DNA of 64,000 bases from an uncultured Gammaproteobacteria bacterium (GCA_963744305.1 CAVUTF010000033.1:63991-127990), one strand, 5' to 3'. Positions 23,444-64,000 are shown, counted from the first letter of the stretch. Translations and numbers: made by a program. The notes: generated by a model not told the origin, from the sequence alone.

Positions 23444-23504
23444 GCGATTTGGCTCCCCCTTACACGCCGCAGCGCGTAGTGTTGTCACGCTTCGCCGCAC
23501 TTCA

Positions 23505-23533: not shown

Positions 23534-23561
23534 TCCGGGCATCGCTGTCGAGAATGCGCTG

Positions 23562-24092
23562 CTACCAAAACTCGGGCGGCTCGACTTCCTCGATGCGACT
23601 CATGAAATCGATCTGCGCATAACGACCCGCAAAGTACAAGAGCGGTCGCCGATCTGCGGCCTCCAAGTGCGTGATGCGGCCGATGAACAGCGTGTGATCG
23701 CCGCACTCGGGAGTGGCGATGACCTCGGCCGTTAGGCCCGCCACGGCGCCGTCGAGCAGCGGCGTCCCGGCGCGGTAGACGAACTCGGCTCGAGCCACTT
23801 CGCGCCCACGGCCTGCGAACTGCGTCGACAGGTGCTGCTGCCACTGACTGAGGAATGACACCCCGTAGCGCCGCGTTTCCTGCAACCGCGCATGCATCCG
23901 TGCGCGCACGTTGATCGACACGACGCACAGCATCGGCTCGAGCGAACCGGCCATGAACGCGTTCGCAGTCATGCCGTACACCTCGTTGCCGATGCTAGTG
24001 GTAATCACGGTGACGCCCGTGGGGAAACGGCTCATGACCTGCCGGAATAGGTCCGAAGATGCGTGCGGAACGGCTGTCGTCTGCGTGTTCAT
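23562..24092 (-). CDS. flavin reductase (HpaC/NtaB-like, FMN-binding split barrel)
   Basis: FRQVMSRFPTGVTVITT...GMTANAFMAGSLEPMLCVVSI...GDHTLFIGRI is the flavin reductase-like domain used by two-component HpaB-type monooxygenases. Confidence 0.82.
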   Translation of the reverse strand: MNTQTTAVPHASSDLFRQVMSRFPTGVTVITTSIGNEVYGMTANAFMAGSLEPMLCVVSINVRARMHARLQETRRYGVSFLSQWQQHLSTQFAGRGREVARAEFVYRAGTPLLDGAVAGLTAEVIATPECGDHTLFIGRITHLEAADRRPLLYFAGRYAQIDFMSRIEEVEPPEFW

Positions 24093-35380: not shown

Positions 35381-35581
35381 GAGTGCATTGCCTCCCCCGG
35401 CCGGAAAATGGAGAATCAGATCTGGACATGGTCTTATCACAAGTGGCGCCGGAGTGACAATACGCGACACCTTGAGAATTCTCCCGAACACGCTAGCAAT
35501 ATGGTGTTATAAGCTCGTGAACGGTATCGAGTTTATCGACGGCGAAATCTCGTGGTGGTTTGTTTGCAACGGGGAGCGCGC

Positions 35582-37984: not shown

Positions 37985-38020
37985 CGGCGGCAGATGACCC
38001 AATTTGAGGGAGAGGAACCG

Positions 38021-39340
38021 ATGTTCATTACAAAGCGACACATTCCCCGCCGAACGTTCTTGCGAGGCATGGGCGCGACCGTGGCGCTGCCGCTCCTGGA
38101 CGCAATGGTGCCGGCGATGGCCGCCGCTCCATCGGGTGTCAGCCGCTATAGCTTCCTGCACGTGCCGCATGGCGCGAGCCCCGGCTACTGGACGCCGACC
38201 GCGGCCGGAAAGCAATGGGAGCTGTCGCCGATCCTGAGCCCGCTCACGCAGTTCAAGGATCAGATCACCATTATCAGCAACACCGATCACGCGATGGCCG
38301 GCTCGCTCTCTCCCGACGAGAGCGCAGGCGACCACTCGCGAACGGCTGCCGTGTATTTGACCGCCGCCCATCCGAAGCGCACCGAGGGCCAGGACATCTA
38401 CGCCGGCATTTCGATCGATCAGGTGCTTGCGAGCAAGATCGGGCAAGAGAATCCCCTACCCTCGCTCGAAATGTGCATCGAGGACGTCGGCTCGCTCGGC
38501 GTCTGCGGCGTCGGCTACAGCTGCGCCTACACGAACTCGATCTCATGGTCGTCACCGACGACGCCGTTGCCGATGGAACGCAATCCTCAGGTGGTCTTCG
38601 AACGGCTGTTCGGGGATGGCAGCACCCCCGAGGAGCGCGCGGCGCGCAAGCGCGAGGATCGCAGCATTCTGGATTCCGTGCTCGCCGACGTTGGGCGACT
38701 GAAGCACGGCCTCGGCCCAAGCGACCTAGCCCGCTTCGACCAGTATCTCGAGGACATCCGCGAGATCGAGCGGCGCATCGCGATTGCGGAGCACACGGCG
38801 GCGGTGGAGGCGGAGCGGCCGGAGACCGCCGAGATGCCGTTCGATCAGCACGTCAAGCTGATGCTCGACCTGCAGGTGCTCGCGTTCAAAGCGGACATCA
38901 CTCGCGTCGCGACGATGATGTTCTCGCGCGACCTATCCGCGAAGGTGTATCCGGAGAGCGGCGTGCCGGACGCCTACCATGCGCTGTCGCACCACCAGGA
39001 CGATGCGACTCGCATGGCGCGTTACGCGAAGATCAACGCCTACCACGTCGCCGTCGTCGGGTATTTCCTCGACAAGCTGCGTGCCGTGCAGGAAGGCGAC
39101 GCAACGCTGCTCGACAACTCTGTCGTGATGTACGGCAGCCCGATGGGCAACTCGAACGCGCACGACCACATTGCGCTGCCGGTGCTCATTGCGGGCGGCG
39201 GCGCGGGCCGATACGAGGGCAACCGGCACATCGTCACGGCGCCGCATACGCCGCTTGCGAATTTCTTCATGACGTTAGCCGAGAAGGAAGGCATTCATCT
39301 GCCGAGCTTCGGCGACAGCACGGAGTTGATGGAGGTCTGA
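38021..39340 (+). CDS. DUF1552 domain protein (Tat signal)
   Basis: MFITKRHIPRRTFLRGMGATVALPLLDAM is a twin-arginine signal typical of DUF1552. RBS GAGGGAGAGG. It is the canonical partner of the upstream DUF1592 gene. Confidence 0.78.
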   Translation: MFITKRHIPRRTFLRGMGATVALPLLDAMVPAMAAAPSGVSRYSFLHVPHGASPGYWTPTAAGKQWELSPILSPLTQFKDQITIISNTDHAMAGSLSPDESAGDHSRTAAVYLTAAHPKRTEGQDIYAGISIDQVLASKIGQENPLPSLEMCIEDVGSLGVCGVGYSCAYTNSISWSSPTTPLPMERNPQVVFERLFGDGSTPEERAARKREDRSILDSVLADVGRLKHGLGPSDLARFDQYLEDIREIERRIAIAEHTAAVEAERPETAEMPFDQHVKLMLDLQVLAFKADITRVATMMFSRDLSAKVYPESGVPDAYHALSHHQDDATRMARYAKINAYHVAVVGYFLDKLRAVQEGDATLLDNSVVMYGSPMGNSNAHDHIALPVLIAGGGAGRYEGNRHIVTAPHTPLANFFMTLAEKEGIHLPSFGDSTELMEV

Positions 39341-49183: not shown

Positions 49184-49834
49184 TCACCAAGACCGCCGCT
49201 GGAAAACGACCGTGAGGTTGTTCGCCGGCATCTCGACCGTCTCTTGCAGAGCGAAACCCGAGCCGCTCGCGAGCCGCTCCACGTCATCGAGGTCGCGGAT
49301 TCCCCACTCGGGATTGCGCGAGCGCAGGCTCGCGTCGAACGCTTCGTTGCTCGGCGCGGTATGCCCACCGCGCCGATAGGGCCCATAGAGGACGAGCGGC
49401 GCGCCGGCCTGCAGCAAACGCCCTGCTTCGGCGAACAACGCCAGCGCGGCCGCCCACGGGGCGATGTGGATCATATTGATGCAGACGATCGCGTCGGCGC
49501 GCGCAAGCGGCCACGGCTTTTCCAGCACGTCGAGCGCCAGCGGTGGCCGCACATTGGCTAGAGCCGCATCGGCGATACGCGCCTCGATCGCCGCTCGCAA
49601 GCGCGCGTCGGGGTCCGATGGTTGCCAGCTCAATTTCGGCAAGGACTGCGCAAAGTGCACGACGTGCTGGCCCGTGCCGCTCGCGACCTCGAGCACGGTG
49701 CCCGTCGCGGGCAATACGCGCTGCAGCACCTCGAGAATCGGCTGCTTGTTGCGCTCGGCCGCCGGGCTTGCGAGCGCATCGCCAAAGAGCGTCTCGCCGT
49801 AGCGCTCGCTCGCTCCTCGATCGGAATCTTGCAT
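49184..49834 (-). CDS. class I SAM-dependent methyltransferase (DUF938-like)
   Basis: SPAAERNKQPILEVL...VLEVASGTGQHVVHFA...WQPSD...INMIHIAPW fits the pattern. The start is taken at the internal ATG (MQDSDRG). Confidence 0.7.
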   Translation of the reverse strand: MQDSDRGASERYGETLFGDALASPAAERNKQPILEVLQRVLPATGTVLEVASGTGQHVVHFAQSLPKLSWQPSDPDARLRAAIEARIADAALANVRPPLALDVLEKPWPLARADAIVCINMIHIAPWAAALALFAEAGRLLQAGAPLVLYGPYRRGGHTAPSNEAFDASLRSRNPEWGIRDLDDVERLASGSGFALQETVEMPANNLTVVFQRRSW

Positions 49835-49864
49835 ACGATTGCTTCGTTCAGGGGAGAATCCGCA

Positions 49865-50050
49865 ATGAATACAGCAAGACGATCCATCCTCCAAGCGGTG
49901 CTTGCCGTCCGCGGTGCGTTCCTCGCGTGCTGTATGACCTTCGTCGCTGCGGCAGCCTTGGCACTGGCCGTCGCATACGCTACCGTTGCGACTCGGTCTT
50001 TTCAGAACGGCCCGGGGCGAACTCCCATTCGCGCGCTACGCTACGGATAG
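49865..50050 (+). CDS. small hypothetical membrane protein
   Basis: A 61-aa ORF with one long hydrophobic stretch (ILQAVLAVRGAFLACCMTFVAAAALALAVAYATVA). GGGGAGA lies 7 nt upstream of the ATG. Confidence 0.35.
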   Translation: MNTARRSILQAVLAVRGAFLACCMTFVAAAALALAVAYATVATRSFQNGPGRTPIRALRYG

Positions 50051-50086
50051 CTGAAGCCTCCGGTGTCGTCCCATCTCGGAGGCAGA

Positions 50087-50524
50087 ATGAAGGCGAGTGA
50101 CTTCTCGGTCGCGTTGAGAATCCGACACCCGAGCATCGATCCGGCGGAAATCAGCCGTCAGATCGGCTTCGATCCGCAACACTCATGGAAGGCAGGAGAG
50201 CCGCGCCGGCCGGTCGCCGGAGAGGTCACCGCAGGCGCCTATCGCGAAACCTATTGGGTAGGACTACTGCCGATCCGCGAGTTGCCGCTGCCGGCTAACA
50301 TTCAGCCGCAAACGACGATCTTCTTCACGCTATTGCGGATGCGCCGCGCCGAGGCCTTTTGGCGGCGCATTGCCGACGAAGGCGGCACGATCGAATGCCT
50401 CGTCGAAGTGCACGGCGGGGAGGATTTTCGCATCGACCTCTCGCAGGCGCTGCTCGCCCTGCTCGTGCAGCTCCGAATCACGCTGTCCGTCGAAACCCAC
50501 ACCGTGATGCGCGCGGCAGCCTAG
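50087..50524 (+). CDS. hypothetical protein, DUF4279-like
   Basis: RBS GGAGG. DFSVALRIRHPSIDPAEISRQIGFDP...W...ECLVEVHGGEDFRIDLSQALLALL resembles the DUF4279 layout as I recall it. Not verifiable here. Confidence 0.45.
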   Translation: MKASDFSVALRIRHPSIDPAEISRQIGFDPQHSWKAGEPRRPVAGEVTAGAYRETYWVGLLPIRELPLPANIQPQTTIFFTLLRMRRAEAFWRRIADEGGTIECLVEVHGGEDFRIDLSQALLALLVQLRITLSVETHTVMRAAA

Positions 50525-50652
50525 GCGCTCAAGGCTGCGTCGACTGCTCGTTCGCCGCGGCTTCCGCCGCGCGCGCCCCGCTCAGAATATTGCGCATCGC
50601 GAGCTTGCCTTCGTGGCAAGCGTAGTCGTAGTCCGCTGCGTGTAATCGACCG

Positions 50653-51132
50653 TCAGATGAAGCCGATTGCGCGGCCCATGAACGCCACGCCGAACCACAG
50701 CGACACCGACACGACTGCAACCACCTTCGCGAGGCCCGATTGCGACCGCCCCGCGTCGCCCAATGCGATCGGCTGGCGCACGGCGAACGTGAAGATGATC
50801 GCCGCGAGCAGAAAAGACATCTTCCACCAGTACGCCACGTTGTAGTAGTACTTCGACGCCGCTAGCGACGCGAACAGCAAAAAGCCCGTCGCGAGAATCA
50901 GGATGAGACTGCCGATGAGCCAAGGCCGCGCCGCAAGCGCGACGTCCGCGACGGGCTGGCGGCGGAAGCCAACTCCAAGCGTCCGCAAATCGACGACGAG
51001 CACCGCGCCGCCGATCACGGCGAGCGCAACCAGATGCACCGACTCGATCAGCGCAAAGGCGTAGAGCGAATTGTTGATTGCAACGGCGAATCCCGTCGCT
51101 TCGATCCACTCGAATGCCGACAATAGCGACAT
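50653..51132 (-). CDS. integral membrane protein, paralog of 51146-51682 (uncharacterised)
   Basis: There are 4-5 hydrophobic helices. It shares FEWIEATGFA / ITWVEATRFS, ES(V)H..., and a C-terminal W...GRxIGF/AY with its neighbour. Confidence 0.6.
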   Translation of the reverse strand: MSLLSAFEWIEATGFAVAINNSLYAFALIESVHLVALAVIGGAVLVVDLRTLGVGFRRQPVADVALAARPWLIGSLILILATGFLLFASLAASKYYYNVAYWWKMSFLLAAIIFTFAVRQPIALGDAGRSQSGLAKVVAVVSVSLWFGVAFMGRAIGFI

Positions 51133-51145
51133 GGCAGCTCCTAGA

Positions 51146-51682
51146 CTAGACGATCGGCTCGAACCAGTTGTACGCGATCAGACGACCGCAGAACACGATT
51201 AAGATCCACAGAGTAACGGACACGACTCCGATGATGTGGGCGCTGCCAGGCAACGGCTTCGTGTCCCAATTGACTAGGCGCTTGCCGATGCCATAGTGAA
51301 ACGCAAGCGCGTTTAGGCCGGCCAGCACCAACGCAACGAGCTTGATCCGAAAGAAAATGTTGCCCCAGAACCGCACGGGCTCCGAGACGAACAACAGCAC
51401 CCCGCTGATCGTCATCACGATGAAGCCGACGAGAATGATCGGCGCGAGCCGATCCCACGTCTCGGACACCGAAGCGCTGCGTACACCGATGTTGAACAAA
51501 CGCAACTCCCAGAACAGCAGCAGCCCTAGGAAGATACACAGGCCGATCACGTGCACGCCGTCGACGATCGCCCACATGTAGACGGACTCGCGAAGGTCGG
51601 TGCTGAAACGCGTGGCTTCTACCCACGTGATGAAACTCAACCAAGACGACACTGATCGATTCCTCTTCAGAAGGGCGGTCAA
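51146..51682 (-). CDS. integral membrane protein, paralog of 50653-51132 (uncharacterised)
   Basis: 4-5 hydrophobic helices. It is in tandem with its paralog, separated by a 13-nt gap. Confidence 0.6.
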   Translation of the reverse strand: MTALLKRNRSVSSWLSFITWVEATRFSTDLRESVYMWAIVDGVHVIGLCIFLGLLLFWELRLFNIGVRSASVSETWDRLAPIILVGFIVMTISGVLLFVSEPVRFWGNIFFRIKLVALVLAGLNALAFHYGIGKRLVNWDTKPLPGSAHIIGVVSVTLWILIVFCGRLIAYNWFEPIV

Positions 51683-51876
51683 GGCCGCGGACTTCGGGAG
51701 ACCGCGGGATGAGCTGTATTTTAGGATGCGCCTTATTAAACAGTCCGCGCGCCGCGGTCAAGTCAACACTTCTAAAGGAAGGCGTCGCGCGCAGCGTCCT
51801 TCTGTTTGACAGGCGCCGCGTGTTCAAATAGAAGGGCAGCACCAGCTTGGGGGCAACCTAGAATGCGAAAAATGGC

Positions 51877-52149
51877 GTGGCGCTTGGCGGCGCCCGTGGC
51901 GCCTGGGAGGGCGCACGGCCGGCGGCCGAATTCTCCCCGCCCTGCGTTCAGGGTGGTCCTCCGGGAGGCCCGGGCGCGCCGAACGCGCCGCCGACGGCCG
52001 AGGACTTCGACAATCTGCCGGCCACCCTGGCGTGGACGGGCGCTGATCGCCGGCTCGGCGACACGGACGCGGCCGAAACGGGCGCGGCCAAGCTCACGTT
52101 CTTCGACTCAGCGTATAAACAACAAATGCAGGGCGGGACTCATCCATGA
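51877..52149 (+). CDS. possible small ORF translationally coupled to the family A gene (weak)
   Basis: The stop TGA overlaps the ATG of 52146 (ATGA), and third positions are GC-rich. There is no family match, and an ATG at 51872 in another frame gives a signal-like MAWRLAAPVA, so the N-terminus may be frameshifted. Confidence 0.2.
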   Translation: MALGGARGAWEGARPAAEFSPPCVQGGPPGGPGAPNAPPTAEDFDNLPATLAWTGADRRLGDTDAAETGAAKLTFFDSAYKQQMQGGTHP

Positions 52150-52991
52150 AACCGATGCGAGATCAGTTTTCCGGCCAGATGAAGGTCGTTGTGGGCACCG
52201 CGATCGCGGCCGGCCTTGCCGTGATCGCGCTCGTCGCGATAAAGATGCCGACGAGCGAAGCGCAATCGGCGACTCAACCCGCTCGAATCGGCGGCCATCC
52301 GAACTTGAACGGCGTCTGGCAGGCGATCAACACGGCTTACTGGAATCTCGAGGATCACTCGGCCGAAGGGTTGTCCAACTTCTGGCAACTGGGTGCGATC
52401 GCCGCGATCCCCGCCGGGCAGAGCGTGATCGAGGGCGGCACGATTCCGTACCTGCCGGCCGCGCTCGCAAAGCGCGACGAAAACCGCGCCGGCTGGCCCA
52501 AGAGCGATCCCGAGGCCAAGTGCTACATGCCCGGGATTCCGCGCGCGACCTACATGCCGTTTCCGTTCCGCATCGTTCAAGGCGACCGCGACATCTTGTT
52601 CGTCTACGAGTTTGCGAGCGCGAACCGCATTGTTCATATGTCAAATCACCAGGAGCCGCCCGTAGACAGCTGGATGGGCTGGTCGAACGGGCGCTGGGAA
52701 GGTGACACACTGGTCATCGAGGTCACCGGCAACAACGACCAAACTTGGTTCGATCGCGCGGGCAACCATCATTCGGTAGCGCTCAAAGTAACCGAGCGCT
52801 ACACGCTGATGGGCGACAATCACCTGCAATACGAGGCGACCATCGAGGATCCGGACACCTTCTCGCGGCCCTGGAAAATCTCGATGCCGCTCTACAAGCG
52901 CCTGGAGCCGAACGTGCAGCTGCTCGAGTTCAAATGCGTGGAGTTCTCCGAAGAGCTACTCTATGGCGACTTGACCAAGAAATCCGAATAA
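52146..52991 (+). CDS. family A secreted/anchored protein (uncharacterised), intact
   Basis: An N-terminal hydrophobic anchor is followed by HPNLNGVWQ, KCYMPGIPRATYMPFPFRIVQ, RWEGDTLVIEVTGNND, VTERY and IEDPDTFSRPW. Confidence 0.7.
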   Translation: MKPMRDQFSGQMKVVVGTAIAAGLAVIALVAIKMPTSEAQSATQPARIGGHPNLNGVWQAINTAYWNLEDHSAEGLSNFWQLGAIAAIPAGQSVIEGGTIPYLPAALAKRDENRAGWPKSDPEAKCYMPGIPRATYMPFPFRIVQGDRDILFVYEFASANRIVHMSNHQEPPVDSWMGWSNGRWEGDTLVIEVTGNNDQTWFDRAGNHHSVALKVTERYTLMGDNHLQYEATIEDPDTFSRPWKISMPLYKRLEPNVQLLEFKCVEFSEELLYGDLTKKSE

Positions 52992-53018
52992 ACTATTCGC
53001 GACAGGATTGGAGAGATT

Positions 53019-53441
53019 GTGATGCGTACCAAACAGTTGAGCGTTGTCGCCGGTGCCCTGCTGCTGTGCGTTCCCACGTTGCCCGTGCTTGCACATCACG
53101 CGTTCGCGGCAGAGTTCGACGCGAATCGTCCGGTCAAGCTCGAAGGCGTCGTCACGAAGATGGAGTGGATCAACCCGCACTCGTGGATTCATATCGACGT
53201 GAAGGGCGATGACGGCTCGGTGCAAAAGTGGATGATCGAAGGTGGCGCTCCGAACGCTCTGCTGCGCCGCGGCTGGAATCGCGACTCGCTGAAAGCCGGC
53301 ACTCAGATCTCGGTACAGGGCTTTCAGGCAAAAGACGGATCGATGCGCGCGAACGGCCGCGACATCACGTTCGCTGATGGCAGCAAGCTCTTCGTCGGCT
53401 CCTCCGGCACCGGCGCACCGGACGAGCGCCCGGGGCAATAA
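53019..53441 (+). CDS. family B secreted protein (uncharacterised), intact
   Basis: The signal peptide reads ...PTLPVLA|HHAFAAEFD. KMEWINPHSWIHIDV and ALLRRGWNRDSLKAGTQISVQG follow. RBS GGAGAG. It starts 27 nt after the family A gene. The ATG at 53022 is an alternative start. Confidence 0.72.
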   Translation: MMRTKQLSVVAGALLLCVPTLPVLAHHAFAAEFDANRPVKLEGVVTKMEWINPHSWIHIDVKGDDGSVQKWMIEGGAPNALLRRGWNRDSLKAGTQISVQGFQAKDGSMRANGRDITFADGSKLFVGSSGTGAPDERPGQ

Positions 53442-53459
53442 CGGGCACCCAAATCGAAT

Positions 53460-53486
53460 CGGGGTCAGGCACCGTGCCTGACCCCG
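53460..53486. terminator. 13-bp GC-rich hairpin between convergent genes (probable terminator)
   Basis: CGGGGTCAGGCAC-c-GTGCCTGACCCCG is a near-perfect palindrome between the 3' ends of 53019-53441 (+) and 53494-54750 (-). The flanking T/A runs are weak. Confidence 0.5.
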
Positions 53487-53493
53487 ATCTTGT

Positions 53494-54750
53494 CTAAGGG
53501 GCTGGCTCGATGCGCAGCAGCGCGCCGTCGTCCTCGTCGGTGATCACGTACAGCAGCCCGTCGGGGCCTTGGCGCACGTCGCGAATGCGTTGGTGCAGAT
53601 CCGATAGCAGGCGCTCGCGGCGCAGGTCCTCGAGCATGTCGCTGAGCACGACGCGCTCGAGACCGCCGGTGCGCGGAATCTCGCCGATGCGCGCACTGCC
53701 GACGAACAGATTACCCTTCCACGCGGGGAAGCGATCGCCCGTGTAGACCGCGAGTCCGGTCGGCGCGATCGACGGCAGCCAGAGAATCTGCGGCTGCTCG
53801 ATGCCCTCGCCCACGGGACTCACCGTGTAACGCGGTCCGTTGTAATTGCGTCCGAAGCTGTACTTCGGCCAACCGTAGTTGCGCCCCGGCAGTATCAGAT
53901 TGACCTCGTCGCCGCCGTTCGGCCCGTGCTCGGCCGCGAGCACGGCGCCCGACGGGTGCACGGTCAAGCCGAGCTGGTCGCGATGGCCGATCGAGAACAC
54001 TTGCGGCTTCGCGGCCGCATGGCTCGCGAACGGGTTGTCGTCCGGAGCCGAGCCGTCGTCGCGCAAGCGCAAGACCTTGCCGTAAACGCTGGCCGGATCC
54101 TGCGCGGCTTCGCCGAACGGCGCGCCGGTCGTGACGTACATTATTCGATCCGGACCGAACGCAAGCCGCGAGCCGCTCCCTCCGTTCGCAATATCTGCGA
54201 CGTAGAGATCCTTCACGTCCGTGAGCGCCTTGCCGTCGAACACGCCGCGCGCGACCGCGAGCGCGGTCTGGCGTTGCGCGGGCGGCAGCGCCGCCTGGTC
54301 ACCCGGCCCGGGCTTGTTGTACGTGAAATAGACGAAGCGGTTCTGCGCGAATTGCGGATGCACGACCACGTCGAAAAGGCCGACATTGCGCACAGGTCCG
54401 GGCGCGGGTGCGCCGCTGATCGGCTCCGGATCGAGTGCCGGCACAGCGTCGTTCGCGGCGTTATGGACCAGGCGTAGGCGCGCTCCGCGCTCGCTGATCA
54501 GCGCATCGCCGTTCGGCAAGAACGCCAGAGAGAACGGATGCGGCAAACCGCGCGCGACGATGCTCACGCGGATTCCGTGCTGCTCGGCGGTATCGAATAC
54601 GTATGGCTCGTTCCGCAGCACGACCGGCGCCACGCCCAAGTCGGGCTGCTGCTGCGCAAACACAGCGGCGCCGGTCGCCGCCAACACGACTGCGGCGCAA
54701 GCGGCCGCTTTCACTGCGCGCACGCTGCGCGCGCGATTCCAATATGACAT
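53494..54750 (-). CDS. PQQ-dependent sugar dehydrogenase (soluble glucose/sorbosone dehydrogenase-type 6-blade propeller), intact
   Basis: A signal peptide is followed by GLPHPFSLAFLPNGDALISER, FVYFTY, GKVLRLRDDGSAPDDNPF, IGHRDQLGL, EHGPNGGDEVN, GRNYGWP and GPDGLLYVITD. Confidence 0.85.
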   Translation of the reverse strand: MSYWNRARSVRAVKAAACAAVVLAATGAAVFAQQQPDLGVAPVVLRNEPYVFDTAEQHGIRVSIVARGLPHPFSLAFLPNGDALISERGARLRLVHNAANDAVPALDPEPISGAPAPGPVRNVGLFDVVVHPQFAQNRFVYFTYNKPGPGDQAALPPAQRQTALAVARGVFDGKALTDVKDLYVADIANGGSGSRLAFGPDRIMYVTTGAPFGEAAQDPASVYGKVLRLRDDGSAPDDNPFASHAAAKPQVFSIGHRDQLGLTVHPSGAVLAAEHGPNGGDEVNLILPGRNYGWPKYSFGRNYNGPRYTVSPVGEGIEQPQILWLPSIAPTGLAVYTGDRFPAWKGNLFVGSARIGEIPRTGGLERVVLSDMLEDLRRERLLSDLHQRIRDVRQGPDGLLYVITDEDDGALLRIEPAP

Positions 54751-54768
54751 GTGATATTTACCTCTTCG

Positions 54769-55716
54769 TTATTCCCAGCCGGTCTGCGACAGATGGTCCG
54801 CACGGAACCCCATCGCCTCGATCTCGTGGAGCTTACCGCCGCTCACCTTATAGATATGTGCCGCCGGTAGGTCGAAGGCATCGAAAGGCAGGTCGAGCTT
54901 CGGAAGCTCGGGAACGCCCTTGATCACGACGAACTTCTGCGCCATCGAATGCCGGAAATGCGACAGGCCGAACACGAGACCCGTCTCCACGTCCGCGATC
55001 TCCACCCGGCGATTGTCGATCGTGTCGATGTACGCCATCGAGCCCGTGTCGAGCTGCGCGGCGCAGCCCATGGCGCCCATCGTGCCGAGACCGGGCGTCG
55101 CGGGTGGCGGATTGCCAGTGGTCTGCATGCCGTTCTCGCGGCGCACGCAGTCGTCGGCGAACGGCGCGAGGCGGCCGTTGTTGTCGTCGAGCGCGTCATA
55201 GTAAGACGCGCCTATCTTGAGCATCTCCTCGCGCGTGTTGCGTTGCGCTGCCGGCACCGCCGCCGCGAACGCGGCCCTCGGCGTTTGCAGATTCGGCAGG
55301 TTGCGTTCCCCTAAGCCGCGCGCGATCAAATGCTCGGCTTCGGTGATCTTGCCGTCCTGCACCTTCAGGCGAAGCGCGAGCTCGACCGGCTTGCCGGCCT
55401 CCTGCAGCACACCGAGGAAGCCGACCTGCTGGGAGACCGGGTCCGGCACGTAGATTTTGAACGTCGTGGGAACAGCCGACGCCGTCTTCCAAAGACCTTC
55501 GCCGACTTTCGTCGCCGTCACGTTCTCGACGAGCTTTGCGTTCGCCGCAATCGGTACGCGGGCGGGATCGTGCGCGACGAGCGCGGCGAGATAGGAATCC
55601 ACGAGCCCGCTCAGGCACGCTCGGTCGCAGCTCGCCGTGCGTTGCTGCGCCCACGACGCTGCCGCGGCGCCCACGAGCACCACCGCACTCGCGCGCCACG
55701 AGGTCGTTACTCTCAT
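54769..55716 (-). CDS. secreted hypothetical protein
   Basis: A signal peptide (..AAASWAQQ) is followed by a Cys-containing mature protein (CDRACLSGLVDSYLAALVAHDP...). There is a 4-nt overlap with the upstream VOC gene. I cannot name a family with confidence. Confidence 0.55.
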   Translation of the reverse strand: MRVTTSWRASAVVLVGAAAASWAQQRTASCDRACLSGLVDSYLAALVAHDPARVPIAANAKLVENVTATKVGEGLWKTASAVPTTFKIYVPDPVSQQVGFLGVLQEAGKPVELALRLKVQDGKITEAEHLIARGLGERNLPNLQTPRAAFAAAVPAAQRNTREEMLKIGASYYDALDDNNGRLAPFADDCVRRENGMQTTGNPPPATPGLGTMGAMGCAAQLDTGSMAYIDTIDNRRVEIADVETGLVFGLSHFRHSMAQKFVVIKGVPELPKLDLPFDAFDLPAAHIYKVSGGKLHEIEAMGFRADHLSQTGWE

Positions 55717-56621
55717 TGTTGCGAGCCCTCTCGCGCCCGCCTGCTTGCCCCTGTCTCTGCGAAGTAGTTGGTGATCCCGTCCGGATCGTCGAGCCAGATC
55801 GTGCGCAGCGAGCCCGCGGAACCCGACAACGGATTGTCGATCGTCACGCCCTCGGACTCGGCGAGCGCGGCGACGACATCGACGTTCGACACGACGTATT
55901 GAATTCCGCCGCTGCCGGTATCCGCCGGCAGCGCCCCGAAGCTGCGCAGGTTGATCGTGGTGGTACCGTGCCGGAACGGATATTTCGTCGTCCCGAACAA
56001 CGCGTCGGGCGCCGGCGGCAGCTCTTCCAGGCCGACGAAGTCGCGATAGAACGCGCGGCTGCGCGCAAGGTCAGAAACGGTCACACCGACCTCGATCTGC
56101 GCAAGGACGTCGGCCGAGGCGCCAGGTACGACGACGAGCTCGACGGGCTGGCCATCGGGATCGTTCACGAGCGCGACCTTGCGCTTCGAGTCGGCCACGG
56201 AACGAAACGCCGGCTCGGAAAGCCCGTGCGCGCGGAAACGCTCGGAGAGCGCCGCTTCGTCGGCGAAGAACAAGGTGACCAAACGCACGCCCGTTGCGTC
56301 GCGGACGCCGCCCGGTTGGTAAGTGCGATCGGCGACGCGCCCCGTGAGCTTGAGCTCGGACCCTCCGGCCTGAAAGCGCGCGACGCCGCCGGTGCCGTCG
56401 GGCCGCACGTTCAGCGTTTGGAGCTGCTTCAAGCCGAGCACGTCGCCGTAGAACTCGAACATCTTCTCGCGATCGACAGTGTGGCGCCGGAACACGTTCA
56501 TGGACGGCTGCCAGAGCGTGGCCCCGACCGGCGACGCCGAATCGCCGGACGCCGTGATCGCGGCAACCAGCAATGCAGCTGCCAAGAAGATTCGATGAAA
56601 TCGATGCTTGATGTTCGACAT
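55713..56621 (-). CDS. VOC (glyoxalase/bleomycin-resistance/extradiol dioxygenase) family protein, secreted, two VOC modules
   Basis: A signal peptide (FLAAALLVAAITASG) is followed by two beta-alpha-beta-beta-beta modules: FYGDVLGLKQL...DPDGQPVELV and FYRDFVGLEEL...DDPDGITNYF. Confidence 0.75.
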   Translation of the reverse strand: MSNIKHRFHRIFLAAALLVAAITASGDSASPVGATLWQPSMNVFRRHTVDREKMFEFYGDVLGLKQLQTLNVRPDGTGGVARFQAGGSELKLTGRVADRTYQPGGVRDATGVRLVTLFFADEAALSERFRAHGLSEPAFRSVADSKRKVALVNDPDGQPVELVVVPGASADVLAQIEVGVTVSDLARSRAFYRDFVGLEELPPAPDALFGTTKYPFRHGTTTINLRSFGALPADTGSGGIQYVVSNVDVVAALAESEGVTIDNPLSGSAGSLRTIWLDDPDGITNYFAETGASRRAREGSQQ

Positions 56622-56653
56622 TTCCGCCCCCTGCACCTATCAGCAATAACGTC

Positions 56654-57621
56654 TCATTGAGCCACGCTCGCGAGCGCAGCTTGCGCGCACTCGTTTGCAA
56701 CCGTGAGATACCGACGCACGGAGTCCGCGCCGACGACATACGGGTGCGCGTCTCCGGACTTGCGCGCCGCGAGCTTCGGCAGCTTGACCTTCGTGCCATC
56801 GTAGTCGGTGTGATTCGACAGCAGCACGTCCGCGCCGGCCGCCGCCGCAATGTCGCGCATGCGCGCGGCAGACGCGGCATAGGCCTTGAAGCGCTCGGGC
56901 TCGGGGCCGAAGTTGAACAATGTGCCGCCCCACAGCGCGCCTACGTGCGCGCGCCCGCCGTCGCGCAACGGGATCAGCGTCGACACGGTGCCGTTCGTGT
57001 GCCCCGGCGTGAGGTACATCGTGAGCGTCGTGTCGCCGAGCGTGAGCTTCTGGCCGTCGGTGATTTCCATGTCGCGGCGCGGCTTCCAGGGCGGATTGTC
57101 GCGCTCGAGCATGTCCCAGTCCGCAGCACTCATCAGGAGCCGTGCGCCGAAGCGTTCCTGCAGAAGCTTCGCACCGCCGGCGTGGTCGAGATGGCCGTGG
57201 CTGATCAGGACGTACTCGATGTCGGCCGGATCCATGCCGAGCTTGCGCAAGCCATCGACGACCTCGTCCTCGACCGAATAGTCGAAGAGCGGATCGATGA
57301 CGATGATGCCTGCGCTCGTGCGGACCGCCCAGGCCGTGAACTCCGTCATGCCGACGAAATAGAAGTTGTCGAACACTTTCGCGGGCTCCGCGTGCCACGA
57401 CTCGCGCGGCGGCGTCGGCGGAGGCGGCCGACGCGGATCGGCGGCCGCCACGGCGGCGGCCGCAGCCGGGCCGGGGCAGAGCCGGTCGACCATCGCGGCG
57501 TGCTCGCCCGCCGGCGGCGCGAGCGGCCGCGATGTGCCGTTCGACGGCCGGGTTCGGCGATTGAGCGAAGACGGCGCCAGCGAGACGTCACCGCGACGAA
57601 GCCGAAGACGAACGCTTTCAT
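56654..57621 (-). CDS. MBL-fold metallo-hydrolase (subclass B3-like), secreted; N-terminal frameshift near 57580
   Basis: FYFVGMTEFTAWAV, ISHGHLDHAGG, TPGHTNG and SNHTD are present. The signal-peptide start MKAFVFGFVAVTS lies in another frame (ORF 57346-57621). RBS GGGGGAG. Confidence 0.8.
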
Positions 57622-57649
57622 CTATGCAACTCCCCCGCGCCAACCCGCC

Positions 57650-59386
57650 TCATGGCAGTGCGAACACGAAGATTTCCGCAGCGCCGGCATCCGATGGCAA
57701 CTCGGGCGTGACGCGCCGCGTTGCCATCGCGACGAGCGAGGCGCCCGTCGTGACCGCGACGTATTGCTTGCCGTCGACTGCGAACGTGACGGGGAAACCG
57801 CTGACCGGCGTCGCCCAAATTCGTCTCCCAAAGCACGGCGCCGGTCGTGTCATCGAATGCCTTGAAATTGCCCGCCGCGTCGCCGCCGAACACGAGGCCG
57901 CCGCCCGTGGCCGCGAGCGACATCATTCCGCTGCGCTGCTCGTGCTTCCACCGCGTGGCGCCGGTTTCGGCGGAGACAGCCCACACGCTGCCGACCTTGT
58001 CCGTGCCGGGCGCGATGAGGGGCTCGCTCTGGAATCCGTAGACGAGCTTCGGGTCGCGCTCGCCGGTTTGCACCGTGGCTTTCATGCACATGTTCTGCAT
58101 CGGCATGTACATCGCGTTGGTGCGCGGGCTGTACGCGCCCGCCGGCCAGTTCTTACCGCCGTTGGTGCCGGGACACACCGTGAGCTCGTGACCCGCGTGT
58201 GTGAACAGCAGGTTCGGGATTCACGGTGACCTTGCCAGTCGCGCCGTCGATGCTGCTCACGACATTCTGCGTCACGGTTGGCCGTGCCCAGAGAAACTCG
58301 CCGGTCTCCCGATCGAGCGTGTAGACGATCCCGGTCTTGCCGGGAACGCCCGTGATCACCTTGCGGCGCTCGCCGCGGCGCACGCGCGGGTTGATCCACG
58401 CAACCTCGTCGGCGTCGGGTGCGACCGCAGTGTCGACGAGCAGCCGCTCGAACGGGTGATCGAGGTCCCAATGATCGTTGAGATGCTGGTAGTACCAGAC
58501 GATGCGGCCCGTGTCGGCGTCGAGCGCGAGCGTCGAGTTGTGATAAAGGTGCTGCTTGTCGTTGCCGCCCAGGATGAACTTCGGGGCCGGGATCGTTACC
58601 GACGTGCCGATGTAGATGCGATCGAGCCCGGGATCGTAGCTCGGCACCATCCATGTGCCGACATGCCAGCGCTGCTCCATCGGCACGTTGCCCCAGCTCT
58701 CATCGCCGGGCTCGCCCGGCCGCGGAATCGTACGCGTGCGCCAGAGCTCCTTGCCGGTGGCCGCATCATGCGCCGTGATCACGCACGACTCGTGAGTGGC
58801 GGCCGGCTGACACTGGCGCCCCGTGATCACCTTGCCGTTTGCGACGATTGGTCCCGAGCTCGCGCGCGCGGGCAGCGTCGCCTCGAGCACGGGCGTCTCC
58901 CACACGAGCTTGCCGGTGCGCGCATCGAGCGCGTACATCTGGTTGTCCGAGCTCGCATCGATCAGGGTCGTTCCCCAGATCGCGATATTGCGGTTCGTGC
59001 CTCCCTGGACGCCCTCCGGAAGCGTGCGCTTGTACTCCCACAGGAGCTCGCCTGACTTCGCGTCGAACGCCTGGATGTAGTCGCCGCGGTTCGGCACGTA
59101 CATCACGCCGTCGTAGACGAGCGGCGTGGACTCCTGGATGCCCTCGCCCATCGCATGCGTCCACACGCGCGTGAGACCGCCCGACGTTGCGCTTGTTGAT
59201 TTGATCGAGCGGACTGTAGCCCCAACCGTCGAGCGTGCGCCGCCACATCAGCCAATTCGCTGGATCGGGCTTCTGCAGCATCGCATCCGTGACCGGGACG
59301 AAAGAACGCTCGTCATCTGCGCTCGCAGGCATCGCAGCCGCCAACACCAACGCTGCCGGCAGTACTCGTAACAGATCAGAGCTCAT
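57650..59386 (-). pseudogene. PQQ-dependent dehydrogenase, paralog 3, about 3-4 frame breaks
   Basis: A signal peptide is followed by NWLMWRRTLDGWGYSPLDQINKRNV, ESTPLVYDGVMYVP, YALDARTGKLVWE, TGRQCQPAATHESCVITAHDAATGKELW, DHWDLDHPFE, CPGTNGGKNW and GKQYVAVTTG...IFVFALP. These are distributed over ORFs 58766-59386, 58153-59166, 57618-58178 and 57650-57853. Confidence 0.8.
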
Positions 59387-59434
59387 TTATTCCCCCAAGG
59401 ACGGTGTCAGGCACCGTTTTGTTGCTTTCGGTGA

Positions 59435-60619
59435 TCAGTCCCAGAACTTCCACCACGGCTTCGCCGGAGGCGCCGGCACGTCCGGCGCGTCGGCCGTCGC
59501 TGACGCTTCTTGGCCGGCGCGCGAGTAGTCGACGAACGTGAGCTCGGTGCACTTGTCCGGCGCGTATGGCAAGTCGGCCACGCCGATCGTGTCGGAGCCC
59601 GTGTACTGTCCGACGATGTTCACGGGATCCTCCGCGGTGTAGCTGCGCGTGATCTGCATCGTCTCCGGGTTCAGGGAGAACCGCTCGACGACGCGCAGTT
59701 GAGCGCTGTTCATGATCGGCGGCGACAAGACACCGGGCGCGAACCCGACCGTGTCGACGATCAACACGTCGTTTTCCCAGCGGCCGATCGAGTGCCCCGC
59801 GCGGCTCGGCGCGACGTTGGCCGGGTGCTCCGTCATGTCCATGTGGATCGTCCGCGTGAAACCGAGCTGGCCGTACTGCAACGTGATCGTGTCGCCGCCC
59901 TGCGTGATTCGGTTCACCGGGCCGTCGAAGGTCCAGTCGAACAGGATGCTCGTGGTCTCGCAGCGCATCCGGGGGTTCTCGGTGGTGTACGTGTCGAACG
60001 CGTCGGCTGCCGCCTTGCCGGCCTCCGTGTACTGCACATCGCGCGTGCGGTACTGGCGCGCGTTTGCTTCGGTCTCTTCGCCCGGTCGAAAACTCTCGGC
60101 TTCGCTGAGCGGCACGAGCGCGCCGCCGCGCCCGCGCGGATCCGTCATGACGAGCTGCTCGGGCGCCCAGTCGCCCGAAATGTTCGGCTCGCCGCTCGGC
60201 AGGCGCGCCGGCCGCGCTATCGGCTGCACCGGCGCCGGAGCTTTCGCGAGCTGGCCGTAGCGATCGGCGCTCGTGCCGTCGGCGAACACGATCGTGGAGA
60301 GATAGCACGAATTCGGGTCATCGCGATCGGGCGCGCCCGTGATCGTGACCTCCTCGCCGTTCTTGAACAGCTCGGGCGACCAGCCCGAGCGGCGCAGCAC
60401 GGTGGCCGCTCGCATCTCGCAGCGCCAGTTCGCCGTCTGCCCGTCTTCTTTGGTGACGGTGAGATACAGCCAGGAATGCGGATTCACGAAGTCGACGCCG
60501 GTGACCGTGCCTTTGATCGCGACTTCGCCGTTGCGGTCGAAGTTGCCGAAGCCGTGATGCGCCAATGCCGCGCTAGCGAGCAATGCAACCGCCGCAGAAA
60601 CGCTGACAGCTCGAATCAT
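59435..60619 (-). CDS. family B + family A fusion protein (uncharacterised), intact
   Basis: The signal peptide reads ...LASAALA|HHGFGNFD. Then GVDFVNPHSWLYLTV and VLRRSGWSPE (B domain) are followed by a linker and EPNISGDWAPE, RWENDVLIVDTVGFA, VVERF and AEDPVNIVG (A domain). RBS AAGGGAG. Confidence 0.72.
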   Translation of the reverse strand: MIRAVSVSAAVALLASAALAHHGFGNFDRNGEVAIKGTVTGVDFVNPHSWLYLTVTKEDGQTANWRCEMRAATVLRRSGWSPELFKNGEEVTITGAPDRDDPNSCYLSTIVFADGTSADRYGQLAKAPAPVQPIARPARLPSGEPNISGDWAPEQLVMTDPRGRGGALVPLSEAESFRPGEETEANARQYRTRDVQYTEAGKAAADAFDTYTTENPRMRCETTSILFDWTFDGPVNRITQGGDTITLQYGQLGFTRTIHMDMTEHPANVAPSRAGHSIGRWENDVLIVDTVGFAPGVLSPPIMNSAQLRVVERFSLNPETMQITRSYTAEDPVNIVGQYTGSDTIGVADLPYAPDKCTELTFVDYSRAGQEASATADAPDVPAPPAKPWWKFWD

Positions 60620-60765
60620 CGCCCGCTCCCTTGGCAGATTGGCCGCGTTCCATAGTAACAAACAACCCGCGGGCCAACCTGCGCTTTCGCCGCTCGAGCG
60701 GAGGCGTGTTGGGCACCTGATATCATGCGGCGCCATGGCGATGTGTCGCGGTCCGGAGGGCAGGA

Positions 60766-61809
60766 AGTGGTGAGAGAGAGCATTTGCTTGGGCGTTCTGT
60801 TGGCGCCGGTGGCAGAGCTTTTGCCATCACAGCGTCGCGTCCTGGTTCGATTCGAGCCAGGTGACGGAGCTTGAAGGCGAGCTCACCGAGCTCAAGTGGC
60901 AGAACCCGCACATCGTGTTCACTCTGAAGGTCACGGGCGAGGATGGACGCGAAACGCTCTGGGATATGGAGTCGCTGTCATTGAGCGGCGTGACCCGGAC
61001 GGGTCTTACACCCGACCTGCTCGTCGTCGGCCAAACCTTGAAGGTGGCCGGCAATCCGTCGCGACGAAACCTCAACAACGTGTTCGTGCGCAACATTCTG
61101 CTGCCGAGCGGCCAAGAGATCGTGCTCGGCCAGCAAGCGCGCTGGACGGCCGACTCGTCGCTGCGCGGCAGTGAAGTCCTACGAGAGCGCGACGGCGACA
61201 CATCGGCGCCCGCGCAAGGCATCTTCCGCGTCTGGAGCACGGGCTCCGGCACGTCGATGATCTTTCCGGAGAACATCACACCGAACTTCGACTTCAGCGT
61301 CTATCCCCTGACGCCCGCTGCAAAAAAAGTCCTCGACGAGTTCGATACATTTGAGGACGATCCGACGCGCAACTGCGCCCCGAAAGGCATGCCGTTGCTC
61401 ATGGAGCAGCCGTACCCGATGCAATTCGCGCGCGAGGGGGACGACATCGTGCTGCGGCTCGAGGAATACGACTCCCGCCGTGTGATTCACATGGACGCTG
61501 AGTCCGCGTCGGCGGCCGCTCGAGCGCCCGCTTCGCTCCTGGGCTACTCCGTCGGACGCTGGGAGGGCCGAGCGCTCGTCGTGACGACGACGCGCGTCAA
61601 TTTCGGCCACTTCGACAGCGTCGGAATCCCGTTGAGCGAGGCCGCCGAGATTCGTCGAGCGGTTCACGCCGAGCGAGGACGGCGCCCGCCTCGACTACGC
61701 GCTGACCGTGACCGATGCCGCCACATTCACGCGTCCCGTCGAGACGTCCAAGCACTGGATCTGGCTGCCCGGGATACGGTCGGCCGCTACGCCTGCTCTC
61801 GCGCAATAG
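60766..61809 (+). pseudogene. family B + family A fusion protein, about 3-4 frame breaks
   Basis: GTG follows GGAGG. The signal-like (V)RESICLGVLLAPVAEL then shifts at a T4 run (60819-60822) to HHSVASWFD...ELKWQNPHIVFTLKV. NCAPKGMPLLMEQPYPMQFA and RWEGRALVVTTTRVN follow. The C-terminus VERFTPSEDGARLDYALTVTD is in another frame. Confidence 0.6.
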
Positions 61810-61822
61810 CCGCGCCGCCGCG

Positions 61823-62538
61823 TCAGGCGGCGAGCATGCCGCTCAGCTTCGCGAGCATGTCGGCCTCGGCGGGGCGACCGGTGATCTGGCACGGACGCGA
61901 GCGCAGCAAGTCGTCCGCCACGGCCGCGCACCGGGACTCTCCGCGAGCACGCGGTTGAGGGTCGGTGTTTCCTCGAGCTTCAAAGCGTCGCCGAACACTT
62001 GTTGCGCGATGCTGAGCTCCTCCCAAAGAAAACAATCCGCGAGCATCACCGGCCGTTCACTCGTGCTCGCGTGCCAGCCCACTCATCGAGCGTGCGCTCG
62101 AGCGAGACCAAGTGAAGACGCAACCTCTCTAGGGTGCGCTTGAGCATCGCGGCGACTTCCACTCCGGGTACGCGACGTCCGCCCAGATCACCATGCCGAT
62201 CGGAACCATCACATCGATATAAGACTCGACGCGAGCATCTCGTGCCGAACGCTGTCTTCGTCGGACAGCCGCGCTCGGTCGCCGAGCTGTTCGTGCAGAA
62301 ACGCTTGAATGACGAGCATTTCGGCGATCAGCCGCTCGTTCCAGCGTAGCACCGGCAGCTTGTGAAACGGTCCGCAGACCTGCGGTCGGGACTATTGCGA
62401 GTCGCTCACTGAAGGTGCCCGAGAGCGGCACCCGGTGATCCTCGAAGGCGACGTCGCCGACAGCAGGTAATAGCGCAGATACTGCGCACGGCCGCGCGCG
62501 TCGAAATACGTCAATCGGATTCGGGGCTTGGGCGGCAT
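61823..62538 (-). pseudogene. glutathione S-transferase family protein, several frame breaks
   Basis: The N-terminus MPPKPRIRLTYFDARGRAQYLRYYLL(SADVAFED) is the GST thioredoxin-like pattern. The helical C-terminal domain fragments (VMLADCFLWEELSIAQQVFGD..., ...MLAKLSGMLAA) lie in ORFs 62392, 62129, 61843 and 61823, in different frames. Confidence 0.5.
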
Positions 62539-62643
62539 GCGGCGCAGTATATCGAGAATGCTTATGACGGTGTGCTCGCCTGTTGCAGTCGCACGGCGAT
62601 TCCTGTCAGATAAACGGCGTCGCAACCCCTAAGGGAATCCGGT

Positions 62644-63830
62644 ATGTCCCATTCGACCGTCCGCGCTTCGGCGCTCGGTATCGCAGCGTGCGGCGTCGTG
62701 CTGGCTAGCGCGCCGGCGCAACTCGCCGCCCAAGAGGTTTACAACTCCCAGCTCCACCCGTTCAAGGTCGTCACGGTCGCGGAAGGATCCGGAATCCGTG
62801 GAGCATGGCCTGGCTGCCGAACGGCGACATGCTCGTGACCGAGCGACCGGGGCGCCTGCGGATCGTGCGCGGGCAGGCTACTGCCACCCGTGGCCGGGGT
62901 GCCCGCGGTTCGCGCGCGGCCAAGGCGGACTGCAGGACGTCGTGGTGCATCCGAATTTCGCGACGAACAAGCTCGTCTATCTCAGCTTCGCAAAGCCGAA
63001 CGCCGACGGCTCGCAAGGCACGACCGCGGTCGTGCGCGGCGAAGCTCGAGAACGATCGCTGGAACGACGTCAAGGAGATCTTCGAGGCCCAGGCGTACAG
63101 CGCCGCGCCGGGCCACTACGGTGCACGCATGGTGTTCGACGGCAAAGGGCATCTGTTCCTGTCGTCCGGCGACAAGATGCGGAATGATGCCGCCGCAGGG
63201 CGATCGGTGCGGTGCACGAAGCTCGAAGGCCACCCGTCCAACGATGACCACAGGGCTCGATCCTGCGCTTGAACGAGGACGGTAGCGTCCGAAAGGACAA
63301 CCCGTTCGCCGGCCGGGCCGACGCTATGCCGGAGCTCTGGACGATCGGAATCGCAATCCTCAAGGATTCGCCTAAACCCGGAGACCGGCGACCTGTGGGA
63401 AACGGAGCATGGCCCGCAAGGCGGCGACGAGCTGAACTTGATCCGTCGGGGCGTGAACTATGGCTGGCCGGTCATCGCCTACGGCGTGAATTACCGCTCG
63501 GCACCGAGATCGGCCCGCGAGCGCCAGGGCATGGAGCAGCCGGCGGCGTTCTGGGTACCGTCGATCGCGCCCTCGGGTCTCATGTTCTATACCGGCGACA
63601 AGTTCCCGGAATGGAAGGGCAACGTGTTCGCCGGCGGCCTGTCGGCCGGCTATCAGCAGCTCTCGCGGCTCACGCTCGAGGGCACGCGCGTGACGAACCG
63701 CGAGCCGCTCCTACAAGGCAAGATGCGCATCCGCGACGTGCGCCAAGGTCCGGACGGCTACATCTACATCGCGACCGACAACACCCTCGGCAACCCAACG
63801 CCGATCGTGCGCCTCGAGCCTGCCGGCTGA
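62644..63830 (+). pseudogene. PQQ-dependent sugar dehydrogenase, second copy, about 5 frame breaks
   Basis: A signal peptide is followed by MAWLPNGDMLVTERPGRLRIV, GGLQDVVVHPNFATNKLVYLSF, GHYGARMVFDGKGHLFLSSGD, GVNYGWPVIAYGVNY and RDVRQGPDGYIYIATDN...IVRLEP. These are spread over ORFs 62644, 62805, 62798 and 63438. Confidence 0.78.
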
Positions 63831-64000
63831 ACGGCTACGAACCTCGAGCAAGGCTCGGGCAACGCGAGAAGCCTTCCTCGTGCGCGCGTGACGCCGCACG
63901 TGAGGCACTGATAGCCTTCTGCCTGACCAAAGTAAAAATATCGTCTGAATATGCCTGGCGAGCTCTTGTTCGGGCGTCCCGCTGCGCACAATCCGACGCG

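Follow-up and report, generated by a model that had tools for sequence, protein, structure and literature searches.

Fused and adjacent genes pair DUF6152 proteins with a family of predicted periplasmic barrel proteins in bacteria

Two families of exported bacterial proteins, which we call A and B, are encoded, in thousands of bacteria from soil, either by neighbouring genes or by a single gene in which B precedes A. We analysed this pairing starting from a stretch of 64,000 nucleotides (nt) of an uncultured Gammaproteobacteria bacterium (GCA_963744305.1, CAVUTF010000033.1:63991-127990), referred to below as the window, in which an intact B-A fusion gene occupies positions 59435-60619 and in which tblastn and a profile scan detect six copies of B and at least ten of A. 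B matches the Pfam family DUF6152 (PF19649), whose entry describes a family of unknown function and leaves the A part outside. A preliminary description of the window had taken the fusion, together with conserved adjacency, as a sign of physical or functional partnership. Surveys of public genomes and metagenomes uphold the functional reading, since the adjacency is found across phyla and in both search directions, and A and B are very likely functional partners. The homology of both fused parts to separate proteins and the recurrence of the fusion in independent genomes likewise accord with the Rosetta-stone criterion (Marcotte/Enright). The overall explanation that we favour, with a probability of roughly 0.55, is that the two are halves of one periplasmic unit, presumably in physical contact, in which B would carry a metal site and A would hold a small hydrophobic ligand.

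Fused and separate forms of the two domains

The fusion gene at 59435-60619 lies on the minus strand and is read from 60619 to 59435, which corrects the preliminary description; its reading of an intact open reading frame (ORF) with a signal peptide, a B domain, a linker and an A domain holds. Translation gives 394 residues. The signal peptide (MIRAVSVSAAVALLASAALA, followed by HH) is encoded at 60560-60619, the B domain (DUF6152, with an oligonucleotide/oligosaccharide-binding fold, or OB-fold, by model) at 60245-60559, a Pro/Ala-rich linker of about 20 residues at 60185-60244, and the A domain, modelled as a barrel resembling the fatty-acid-binding proteins (FABP), at 59438-60184, with the stop codon at 59435-59437, all on the minus strand. 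DUF6152 covers residues 11-100 of the product with an expectation value (E) of 1.3e-25 and a score of 89.8 bits, the Pfam gathering threshold being 27 bits. The protein has more than 5000 homologues, and in public databases such fusions are annotated as 'DUF6152 family protein'. The best 120 homologues are 62-97% identical and mostly about 390 amino acids long; soil metagenomes and metagenome-assembled genomes of Gammaproteobacteria are their main sources. Across 54 aligned members of this subfamily, which we name type I, the linker is conserved and 97 columns are invariant.

The same architecture recurs, frameshifted as the preliminary description had noticed, at 60766-61809 (plus strand) and 7162-8304 (minus strand), which form a second fusion subfamily, type II. 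The gene at 60766-61809, recovered by three-frame reading, is broken by 1-nt insertions or deletions (indels), such as an extra base at 61652. It aligns in two frames to an intact orthologue of 347 amino acids encoded on a contig of the European Nucleotide Archive (L001:8818-9861, minus strand), a locus that was reached through P0001, a database protein 97% identical to the type I fusion of the window. The paralogue at 7162-8304 carries two compensating frameshifts inside B, the segment 7842-7940 being in another frame, and its product is 37% identical to the type II protein of L001 over 328 amino acids.

Elsewhere in the window, the two domains are encoded separately. A stand-alone B (B1; 5718-6098, plus strand; DUF6152 E 7e-27, 93.8 bits), whose signal peptide ends in ALA immediately before HH, is followed after 10 nt by a stand-alone A with its own signal peptide (A1; 6109-7119, plus strand), and a 281-residue stand-alone A (A2; 52146-52991, plus strand) is followed after 27 nt by another stand-alone B (B2; 53019-53441, plus strand; DUF6152 E 1.7e-35, 121.5 bits). 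Both pairs stand as initially described. The third pair, placed at 17250-18804 and 18809-19225 (plus strand) and credited with a gap of 4 nt, needs revision: the stop that defines this gap belongs to a different frame, and the A part is a tandem A-A with multiple frameshifts, located directly 3' of a gene for a pyrroloquinoline quinone (PQQ) dehydrogenase. Its last A domain, once the right frame is followed, continues without a stop into the B copy, itself frameshifted (ORF 18347-19225). Homologous loci all have a stop at the A/B boundary and a separate B signal peptide, and the boundary within 18347-19225 is ambiguous in this error-prone assembly.

Fused and stand-alone domains are homologous on both sides of the linker; for the N-terminal (B) side, the preliminary description had let its proposal hinge on this point. 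All B copies, whether fused or split, exceed the DUF6152 gathering score (E 1e-25 to 1e-35 in Pfam), and the type II fusion of L001 reaches 56.6 bits. When five B domains of the window are aligned, two of them split and three fused, 11 columns are invariant, including the HH pair, an Asp, the PH pair and a Glu; in B2 numbering these are H26, H27, D34, G43, P53, H54, D65, G66, W71, E74 and R83. On the A side, hhalign aligns the A part of type I with the stand-alone A2 family at a probability of 96.2% (E 2.2e-9, 128 columns), and eight columns are invariant among fused and split A domains (C126, R161, G178, S180, W184, L189, D235 and P236). At the fusion junction, the C-terminus of B is followed by the linker and then by PARLPSGEPNISGDW, which corresponds to the mature N-terminus of A2, PARIGGHPNLNGVW; the signal peptide of A has therefore been replaced in the fusion. 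The B domain of type I is 34-37% identical to the split B1 and B2, as against 26-28% to the B domain of type II. A neighbour-joining tree of this domain of about 120 residues, built without support values and in which truncated metagenomic proteins may be mis-scored as split, requires 12 changes between the fused and split states under Fitch parsimony and has its fused tips scattered, which hints at repeated fusion or fission.

The frequency of broken genes raises the question of whether the fusions could themselves be artefacts of an error-prone assembly in which neighbouring genes were merged. Positions 49450-63840 of the window and the L001 contig are 93.5% identical and differ by 112 indels, mostly of 1 nt, which are spread across coding DNA and are not limited to homopolymers. 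The frameshifted genes of the window include PQQ dehydrogenases, an HpaB-like monooxygenase (18943-20838) and several A/B copies. Because the breaks of one assembly fall in regions that are intact in the other, the 347-residue type II fusion and a 559-residue PQQ dehydrogenase being intact in L001 and broken in the window, and A2/B2 intact in the window and broken in L001, these frameshifts are most likely assembly errors, probably from long reads; pseudogenisation or decay was rejected as their cause on the same observation. The abundance of 1-nt indels in both assemblies and the boundary that they blur at 18347-19225 would suit an artefactual merging of genes. However, the homologues of type I come from many independent assemblies and share a conserved linker and numerous invariant columns, the signal peptide of A is missing at the fusion junction, and type II is intact in L001, so that for both fusion types an assembly artefact is effectively refuted.

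Conservation of the pairing and predicted structures

Two surveys, one of the best 80 genome loci seeded on A and the other of the best 80 metagenome loci seeded on the N-terminal motif of B, address the pairing from both sides. B is present at 73 of the 80 A-seeded loci, which belong to Gammaproteobacteria (including Steroidobacteraceae), Acidobacteriota (Bryobacterales, Terriglobia, Vicinamibacterales), Alphaproteobacteria and other taxa. Among the 83 B genes of these loci, 64 lie directly after A, 9 directly before A, and 4 are fused as B-A. Gene order varies with lineage, being mostly A-B in Gammaproteobacteria and mostly A-A-B or A-A-A-B in Acidobacteriota. A cultured carrier, Peristeroidobacter agariperforans KA5-B, has A-B at its locus L059. 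The B-seeded survey, built on a 44-sequence B alignment and hence biased towards B2-like proteins, finds a same-strand adjacent A at 64 of 80 loci (A before B at 56, B before A at 7, both at 1); with 14 of the 80 truncated, this corresponds to 64 of the 66 assessable loci. Only two of the 80 lack an adjacent A while having room for one on both sides, one of the two being a B-B tandem situated within a cluster of A genes.

Both families are large. Stand-alone A2 has at least 8000 matches at E<=1e-3, the best 120 of which are 76-97% identical and carry no Pfam domain, and the B-domain profile retrieves 16,699 cluster representatives at 50% identity. The preliminary description had called for a count of fused versus split arrangements: the top 150 B representatives comprise 113 with B alone, 26 B-A fusions (about 17%), 11 B-B tandems and no A-B fusion. 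Order is thus asymmetric, every fusion seen being B-A though about 85% of split pairs run from A to B.

The AlphaFold2 model of the type I fusion (predicted local distance difference test, pLDDT, 74.8; predicted template-modelling score, pTM, 0.58) contains two well-modelled beta cores. When the B part is compared with the PDB by Foldseek, it matches OB-folds, namely the LysRS anticodon-binding domain, SSB, RPA, CST and the OBody, at weak E-values of 2e-3 to 2e-2 over about 100 columns. The motifs of B are well conserved: in the 150 representatives, Ala occupies position -1 in 90%, HH is found in 98-99% (median position 23), NPH in 99-100%, an Asp in 92% and a Glu in 97%, and the context A-x-A followed by HH is seen in about 90%. 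The -3/-1 rule predicts that signal peptidase cuts directly before His-His, with which mature B would then begin. No Met occurs among the columns conserved at >=70% in the same representatives, and searches of the PDB with sequence profiles from the fusion, B and A alignments returned chance-level matches only. In eight B-B tandems (P0241, P0242, P0256, P0258, P0296, P0338, P0339 and P0259), the second B lacks NPH in all eight and keeps HH in half. Together with the strict B-A order of the fusions, this loss in internal copies suggests that the free N-terminus of B matters. A B-A-only order would be expected if the N-terminus of B had to be freed by signal peptidase, and an A-B fusion would bury it. 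Whether B carries a metal site that uses this mature N-terminus (His-His, the NPH His, Asp and Glu) is, judging from the conserved residues, an evenly balanced matter; that such a site would be a copper histidine brace specifically seems doubtful. The type II fusion of L001 (8818-9861, minus strand) departs from the usual context, with AGFC preceding HH and thus Cys, not Ala, at -1, and either the cleavage site or the processing may differ in this subfamily.

Seven sequences of the A family gave no Pfam match at E<=10, and A has no match in NCBIfam and no sequence relative in the PDB at E<=10. The AlphaFold2 model of A2 (pLDDT 68, pTM 0.68) consists of one N-terminal strand, a helical insert and nine more strands, and its best Foldseek matches in the PDB are the barrels of the CRBP/FABP/CRABP class (CRBP1, FABP1, CRABP2), with probabilities of 0.99-1.0, target template-modelling scores of 0.5-0.58 and E-values of about 1e-3. 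The first strand contains a GxW motif (G56 and W58) conserved at >=90% across fused and split paralogues, a motif that Flower et al. reportedly described as a calycin signature. The N-terminal Cys of A is invariant and the C-terminal Cys more than 90% conserved, which is consistent with a periplasmic disulfide, and the A proteins bear a signal peptide or a lipobox (LAAC in the product of 8868-9827, and similar in several A2 homologues). Going by the modelled fold, the A barrel could bind a hydrophobic ligand, an assignment that we make tentatively and at somewhat less than even odds.

Further copies and neighbouring genes

Additional A genes of the window have no adjoining B. Two lie in tandem at 8868-9827, with the lipobox LAAC, and 9820-10806 (both minus strand); they constitute a distinct A subfamily, with 51% mutual identity and a 'DC.PPG.PRW' motif. 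A further A gene is found at 22601-23542 (minus strand; E 3e-62 against the A profile), and its stop is overlapped by 4 nt by the start of a distant A-like gene at 21837-22604 (minus strand; E 1.8e-5 against the A profile). The latter encodes a secreted protein of 255 amino acids, without a Pfam match, that shows weak similarity to the A profile in the C-terminal half of the latter and may be a further, very divergent A-like partner. In A1, an additional N-terminal domain of about 100 amino acids (window 6109-6450) separates the signal peptide from the A barrel; its PKD/Ig-like Pfam match is weak (E 0.004, below the cut-off).

Directly 3' of the type I fusion, on the same strand, lies a frameshifted gene for a PQQ-dependent dehydrogenase (57618-59386, minus strand), the intact 559-residue L001 orthologue of which matches TIGR03075 at E 3e-101, below the curated cut-off of that family. 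The succession of a type I fusion and a PQQ dehydrogenase, often then a dehydrogenase of the glucose/sorbosone (GSDH) type, is found at four of five loci with 64-97% protein identity (the window, L001, L162 and L164, not L163). A second PQQ dehydrogenase of the window (about 15300-17114, plus strand) is the one directly followed by A-A-B, and two more paralogues, at 12363-14006 (plus strand) and 28846-30900 (minus strand), bring the PQQ family to four members in 64 kb. Three of the four carry 'DHWDLDHP' (W-D-x-D), with scores below the curated cut-off of the methanol/ethanol family; this W-D-x-D is reminiscent of the additional Asp found in lanthanide-dependent enzymes of the XoxF/PedH type. 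The PQQ dehydrogenase neighbours had raised the idea that B might itself have a lanthanide role, which was set aside on chemical grounds, His-rich sites being poor lanthanide ligands.

Over 81 loci, the recurrent neighbours are PQQ dehydrogenases (14), DUF6644 membrane proteins (11), short-chain dehydrogenases/reductases (SDRs; 11), acyl-CoA dehydrogenases (8) and SnoaL-like proteins (7). In the window, two tandem DUF6644 proteins with four transmembrane segments (50653-51132 and 51146-51682, both minus strand) are encoded divergently from A2-B2, and DUF6644, which is also present in L001, may serve the A2/B2 subfamily as a partner in the membrane. At 35552-37984 (plus strand) lies the gene of a DUF1592/DUF1588/DUF1585-type protein, whose cytochrome c match (Cytochrome_CBB3) is weak and falls below the cut-off; it is paired with the gene of a DUF1552 (HXXSHH) protein (37994-39340, plus strand). 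Five to six of the A-seeded loci contain this pair as well, and in L162 and L164 it is found close to the type I fusion.

The window further encodes a 4-hydroxybenzoate 3-monooxygenase (27661-28839, minus strand; 563 bits, above the cut-off), a methylenetetrahydrofolate-reductase-like protein (26733-27629, minus strand), a StyB/HpaC-type flavin reductase (23562-24092, minus strand), a B3 metallo-beta-lactamase (MBL)-fold protein and a 430-residue ankyrin-repeat protein (33913-35205, minus strand) of a kind unusual for bacteria. With the monooxygenase, the flavin reductase, the MBL-fold protein and the PQQ enzymes, the setting is therefore one of aromatic and alcohol catabolism.

Interpretation of the A/B unit

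In the explanation that we favour, A and B would be two halves of one periplasmic unit, supplied either as one B-linker-A chain or by two adjacent genes, of which A usually comes first. Cleavage after the conserved Ala would expose His-His, which with the NPH His, the Asp and the Glu would create a metal site needing a free N-terminus, in the manner of a histidine brace. A would be a disulfide-stapled, 10-stranded FABP/calycin-like barrel, lipid-anchored in some homologues and holding a small hydrophobic ligand; B would dock on A, so that the metal site could act on, or exchange with, the contents of the barrel. Different paralogous pairs would then be devoted to different substrates of periplasmic catabolic pathways, in many cases next to PQQ dehydrogenases. 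This mechanism fits all the data but is weakly constrained, and its individual steps range from doubtful to evenly balanced. In a bolder version, drawn by analogy, DUF6152 would be a hitherto unrecognised OB-fold family of histidine-brace-type metalloproteins. Docked or fused to a calycin barrel that offers it a hydrophobic substrate, it would act as a mono-metal (copper) oxygenase or peroxygenase of the periplasm and represent a new enzyme class. Soil Gammaproteobacteria resembling Steroidobacteraceae, as well as Acidobacteriota, would carry this class in massively expanded numbers, and its products would pass to the neighbouring PQQ dehydrogenases; we regard this version as very unlikely.

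Several known systems offer partial parallels. In a histidine brace, copper is held in a T-shaped geometry by the N-terminal NH2, an N-delta and a distal N-epsilon. The copper proteins of this kind (LPMOs, CopC, YcnI, PmoD) are secreted and have His as their first mature residue together with a distal conserved His (PMC10952591). B resembles them in its predicted mature N-terminal His and in its NPH His, and the exclusive B-A order of the fusions would follow from a need for a free N-terminus. It differs from them in having a predicted OB-fold rather than an Ig-like, cupredoxin-like or DUF1775 fold, a second adjacent His and a conserved Asp and Glu, and in showing no sequence relationship to them; its metal site is a putative one. 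CusF and SilF are small periplasmic OB-fold chaperones of Cu(I)/Ag(I) with a metal-ligand motif on the barrel (PMC10656224). B is likewise small, periplasmic and, by model, an OB-fold; however, the His/Met/Met/Trp set of CusF is not conserved in B, CusF is not among the top 50 Foldseek matches, and the partners of CusF are CusB and CusA, not a calycin. The A model, with its strand A, helical insert, nine strands and GxW, is reminiscent of FABP/CRBP and of calycins such as lipocalins and avidins, but A has no Pfam lipocalin or FABP match at E 10, separates strands A and B by some 80 inserted residues, is a lipoprotein or a periplasmic protein, possesses a conserved Cys pair that may form a disulfide and is about twice the size of FABP.

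The alternation between split and fused forms also has parallels among periplasmic metal-handling partners, which in various bacteria are encoded separately, as ZinT/ZnuA or CopC/CopD, or fused, as AdcA or YcnJ; ZinT is itself a calycin-fold metal binder, split from its partner or fused to it in AdcA. These families are unrelated to A and B, however, and in the present case the His-rich element is on the OB-fold partner rather than on the calycin, and the unit includes no transporter.

Several observations weigh against the favoured explanation. No copper-handling gene recurs in the neighbourhoods of the 81 loci, and Zn, Ni or Fe would also be compatible with the His at the second position and with the conserved acidic residues. 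The Foldseek E-values for A and B are all weak (1e-3 to 1e-2), and the N-terminal His region has a pLDDT below 50 in a single-chain model of pTM 0.58. Because type II of L001 has Cys at -1, some subfamilies may not be cleaved precisely before HH. A can work alone, because A genes occur without B, both in the window (8868-10806 and 22601-23542) and at 7 of the 80 A-seeded loci. Finally, the two locus surveys sample A2/B2-like subfamilies, and the strong linkage that they document applies to these lineages rather than amounting to a full census.

The company of PQQ dehydrogenases allows a different account, in which A/B units would assist periplasmic quinoproteins (PQQ dehydrogenases of the alcohol type and GSDH-type dehydrogenases) as electron acceptor, as metal or PQQ loader or as a shuttle that passes hydrophobic alcohols to the enzyme, and the A-B partnership would be secondary to a three-way complex. 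The dehydrogenase directly 3' of the type I fusion at four of five loci, often with a GSDH-type enzyme next to it, the A-A-B cluster that directly follows the dehydrogenase ending at 17114, and the rank of PQQ dehydrogenases as the commonest neighbours other than A and B (14 of 81 loci) speak for this account. However, 67 of the 81 A-B loci have no PQQ dehydrogenase within about 6 kb, other neighbours being SDRs, acyl-CoA dehydrogenases, SnoaL-like and DUF6644 proteins, and B lacks the conserved Cys or Met expected of an electron-transfer copper site; we consider this account unlikely. Periplasmic metal trafficking or buffering, of the CusF/SilF, CopC or ZinT kind and without any catabolism of organic substrates, would be compatible with the conserved His-His, NPH, Asp and Glu of B, with its periplasmic OB-fold and with the precedent of ZinT. 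Against it stand the very large size of the families and the presence of at least ten A and six B copies in 64 kb, a scale unusual for metallochaperones, together with the lack of recurrent metal transporters, regulators or cuproenzymes nearby and the lack of conservation of the CusF-type Met/Met/Trp ligands, which leave it quite unlikely.

A and B might also be co-expressed in the same pathway without touching each other, the fusion merely tethering two independent activities or B helping A, from its N-terminal position, to fold or to be exported. The Pro/Ala-rich linker of about 20 residues and the existence of A without B are compatible with such an arrangement. Independent activities would, however, leave the strict B-A order of the fusions unexplained. 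Moreover, adjacency is kept across phyla in both search directions, and fusion subfamilies recur, to judge from the greater proximity of type I B to the split B1 and B2 than to type II B and, more weakly, from the scattered fused tips of the neighbour-joining tree. We therefore hold an arrangement without contact to be very unlikely.

No publication on DUF6152, on the A family or on their pairing was found in the literature searched. Neither the A-B pairing nor the N-terminal His-His feature seems to have been described before, while the folds and the split-or-fused logic have precedents. At a minimum, A deserves a Pfam family of its own, with its annotation linked to that of B. As halves of one periplasmic unit, two anonymous families, B being a named DUF and A having no family model, become a single testable entity, for which the predictions are an A-B heterodimer, a metal site that would need the free N-terminal His of B, and a ligand in the A barrel. 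The pairing also points to a possibly important and unstudied periplasmic chemistry in abundant soil bacteria, often encoded beside PQQ dehydrogenases.

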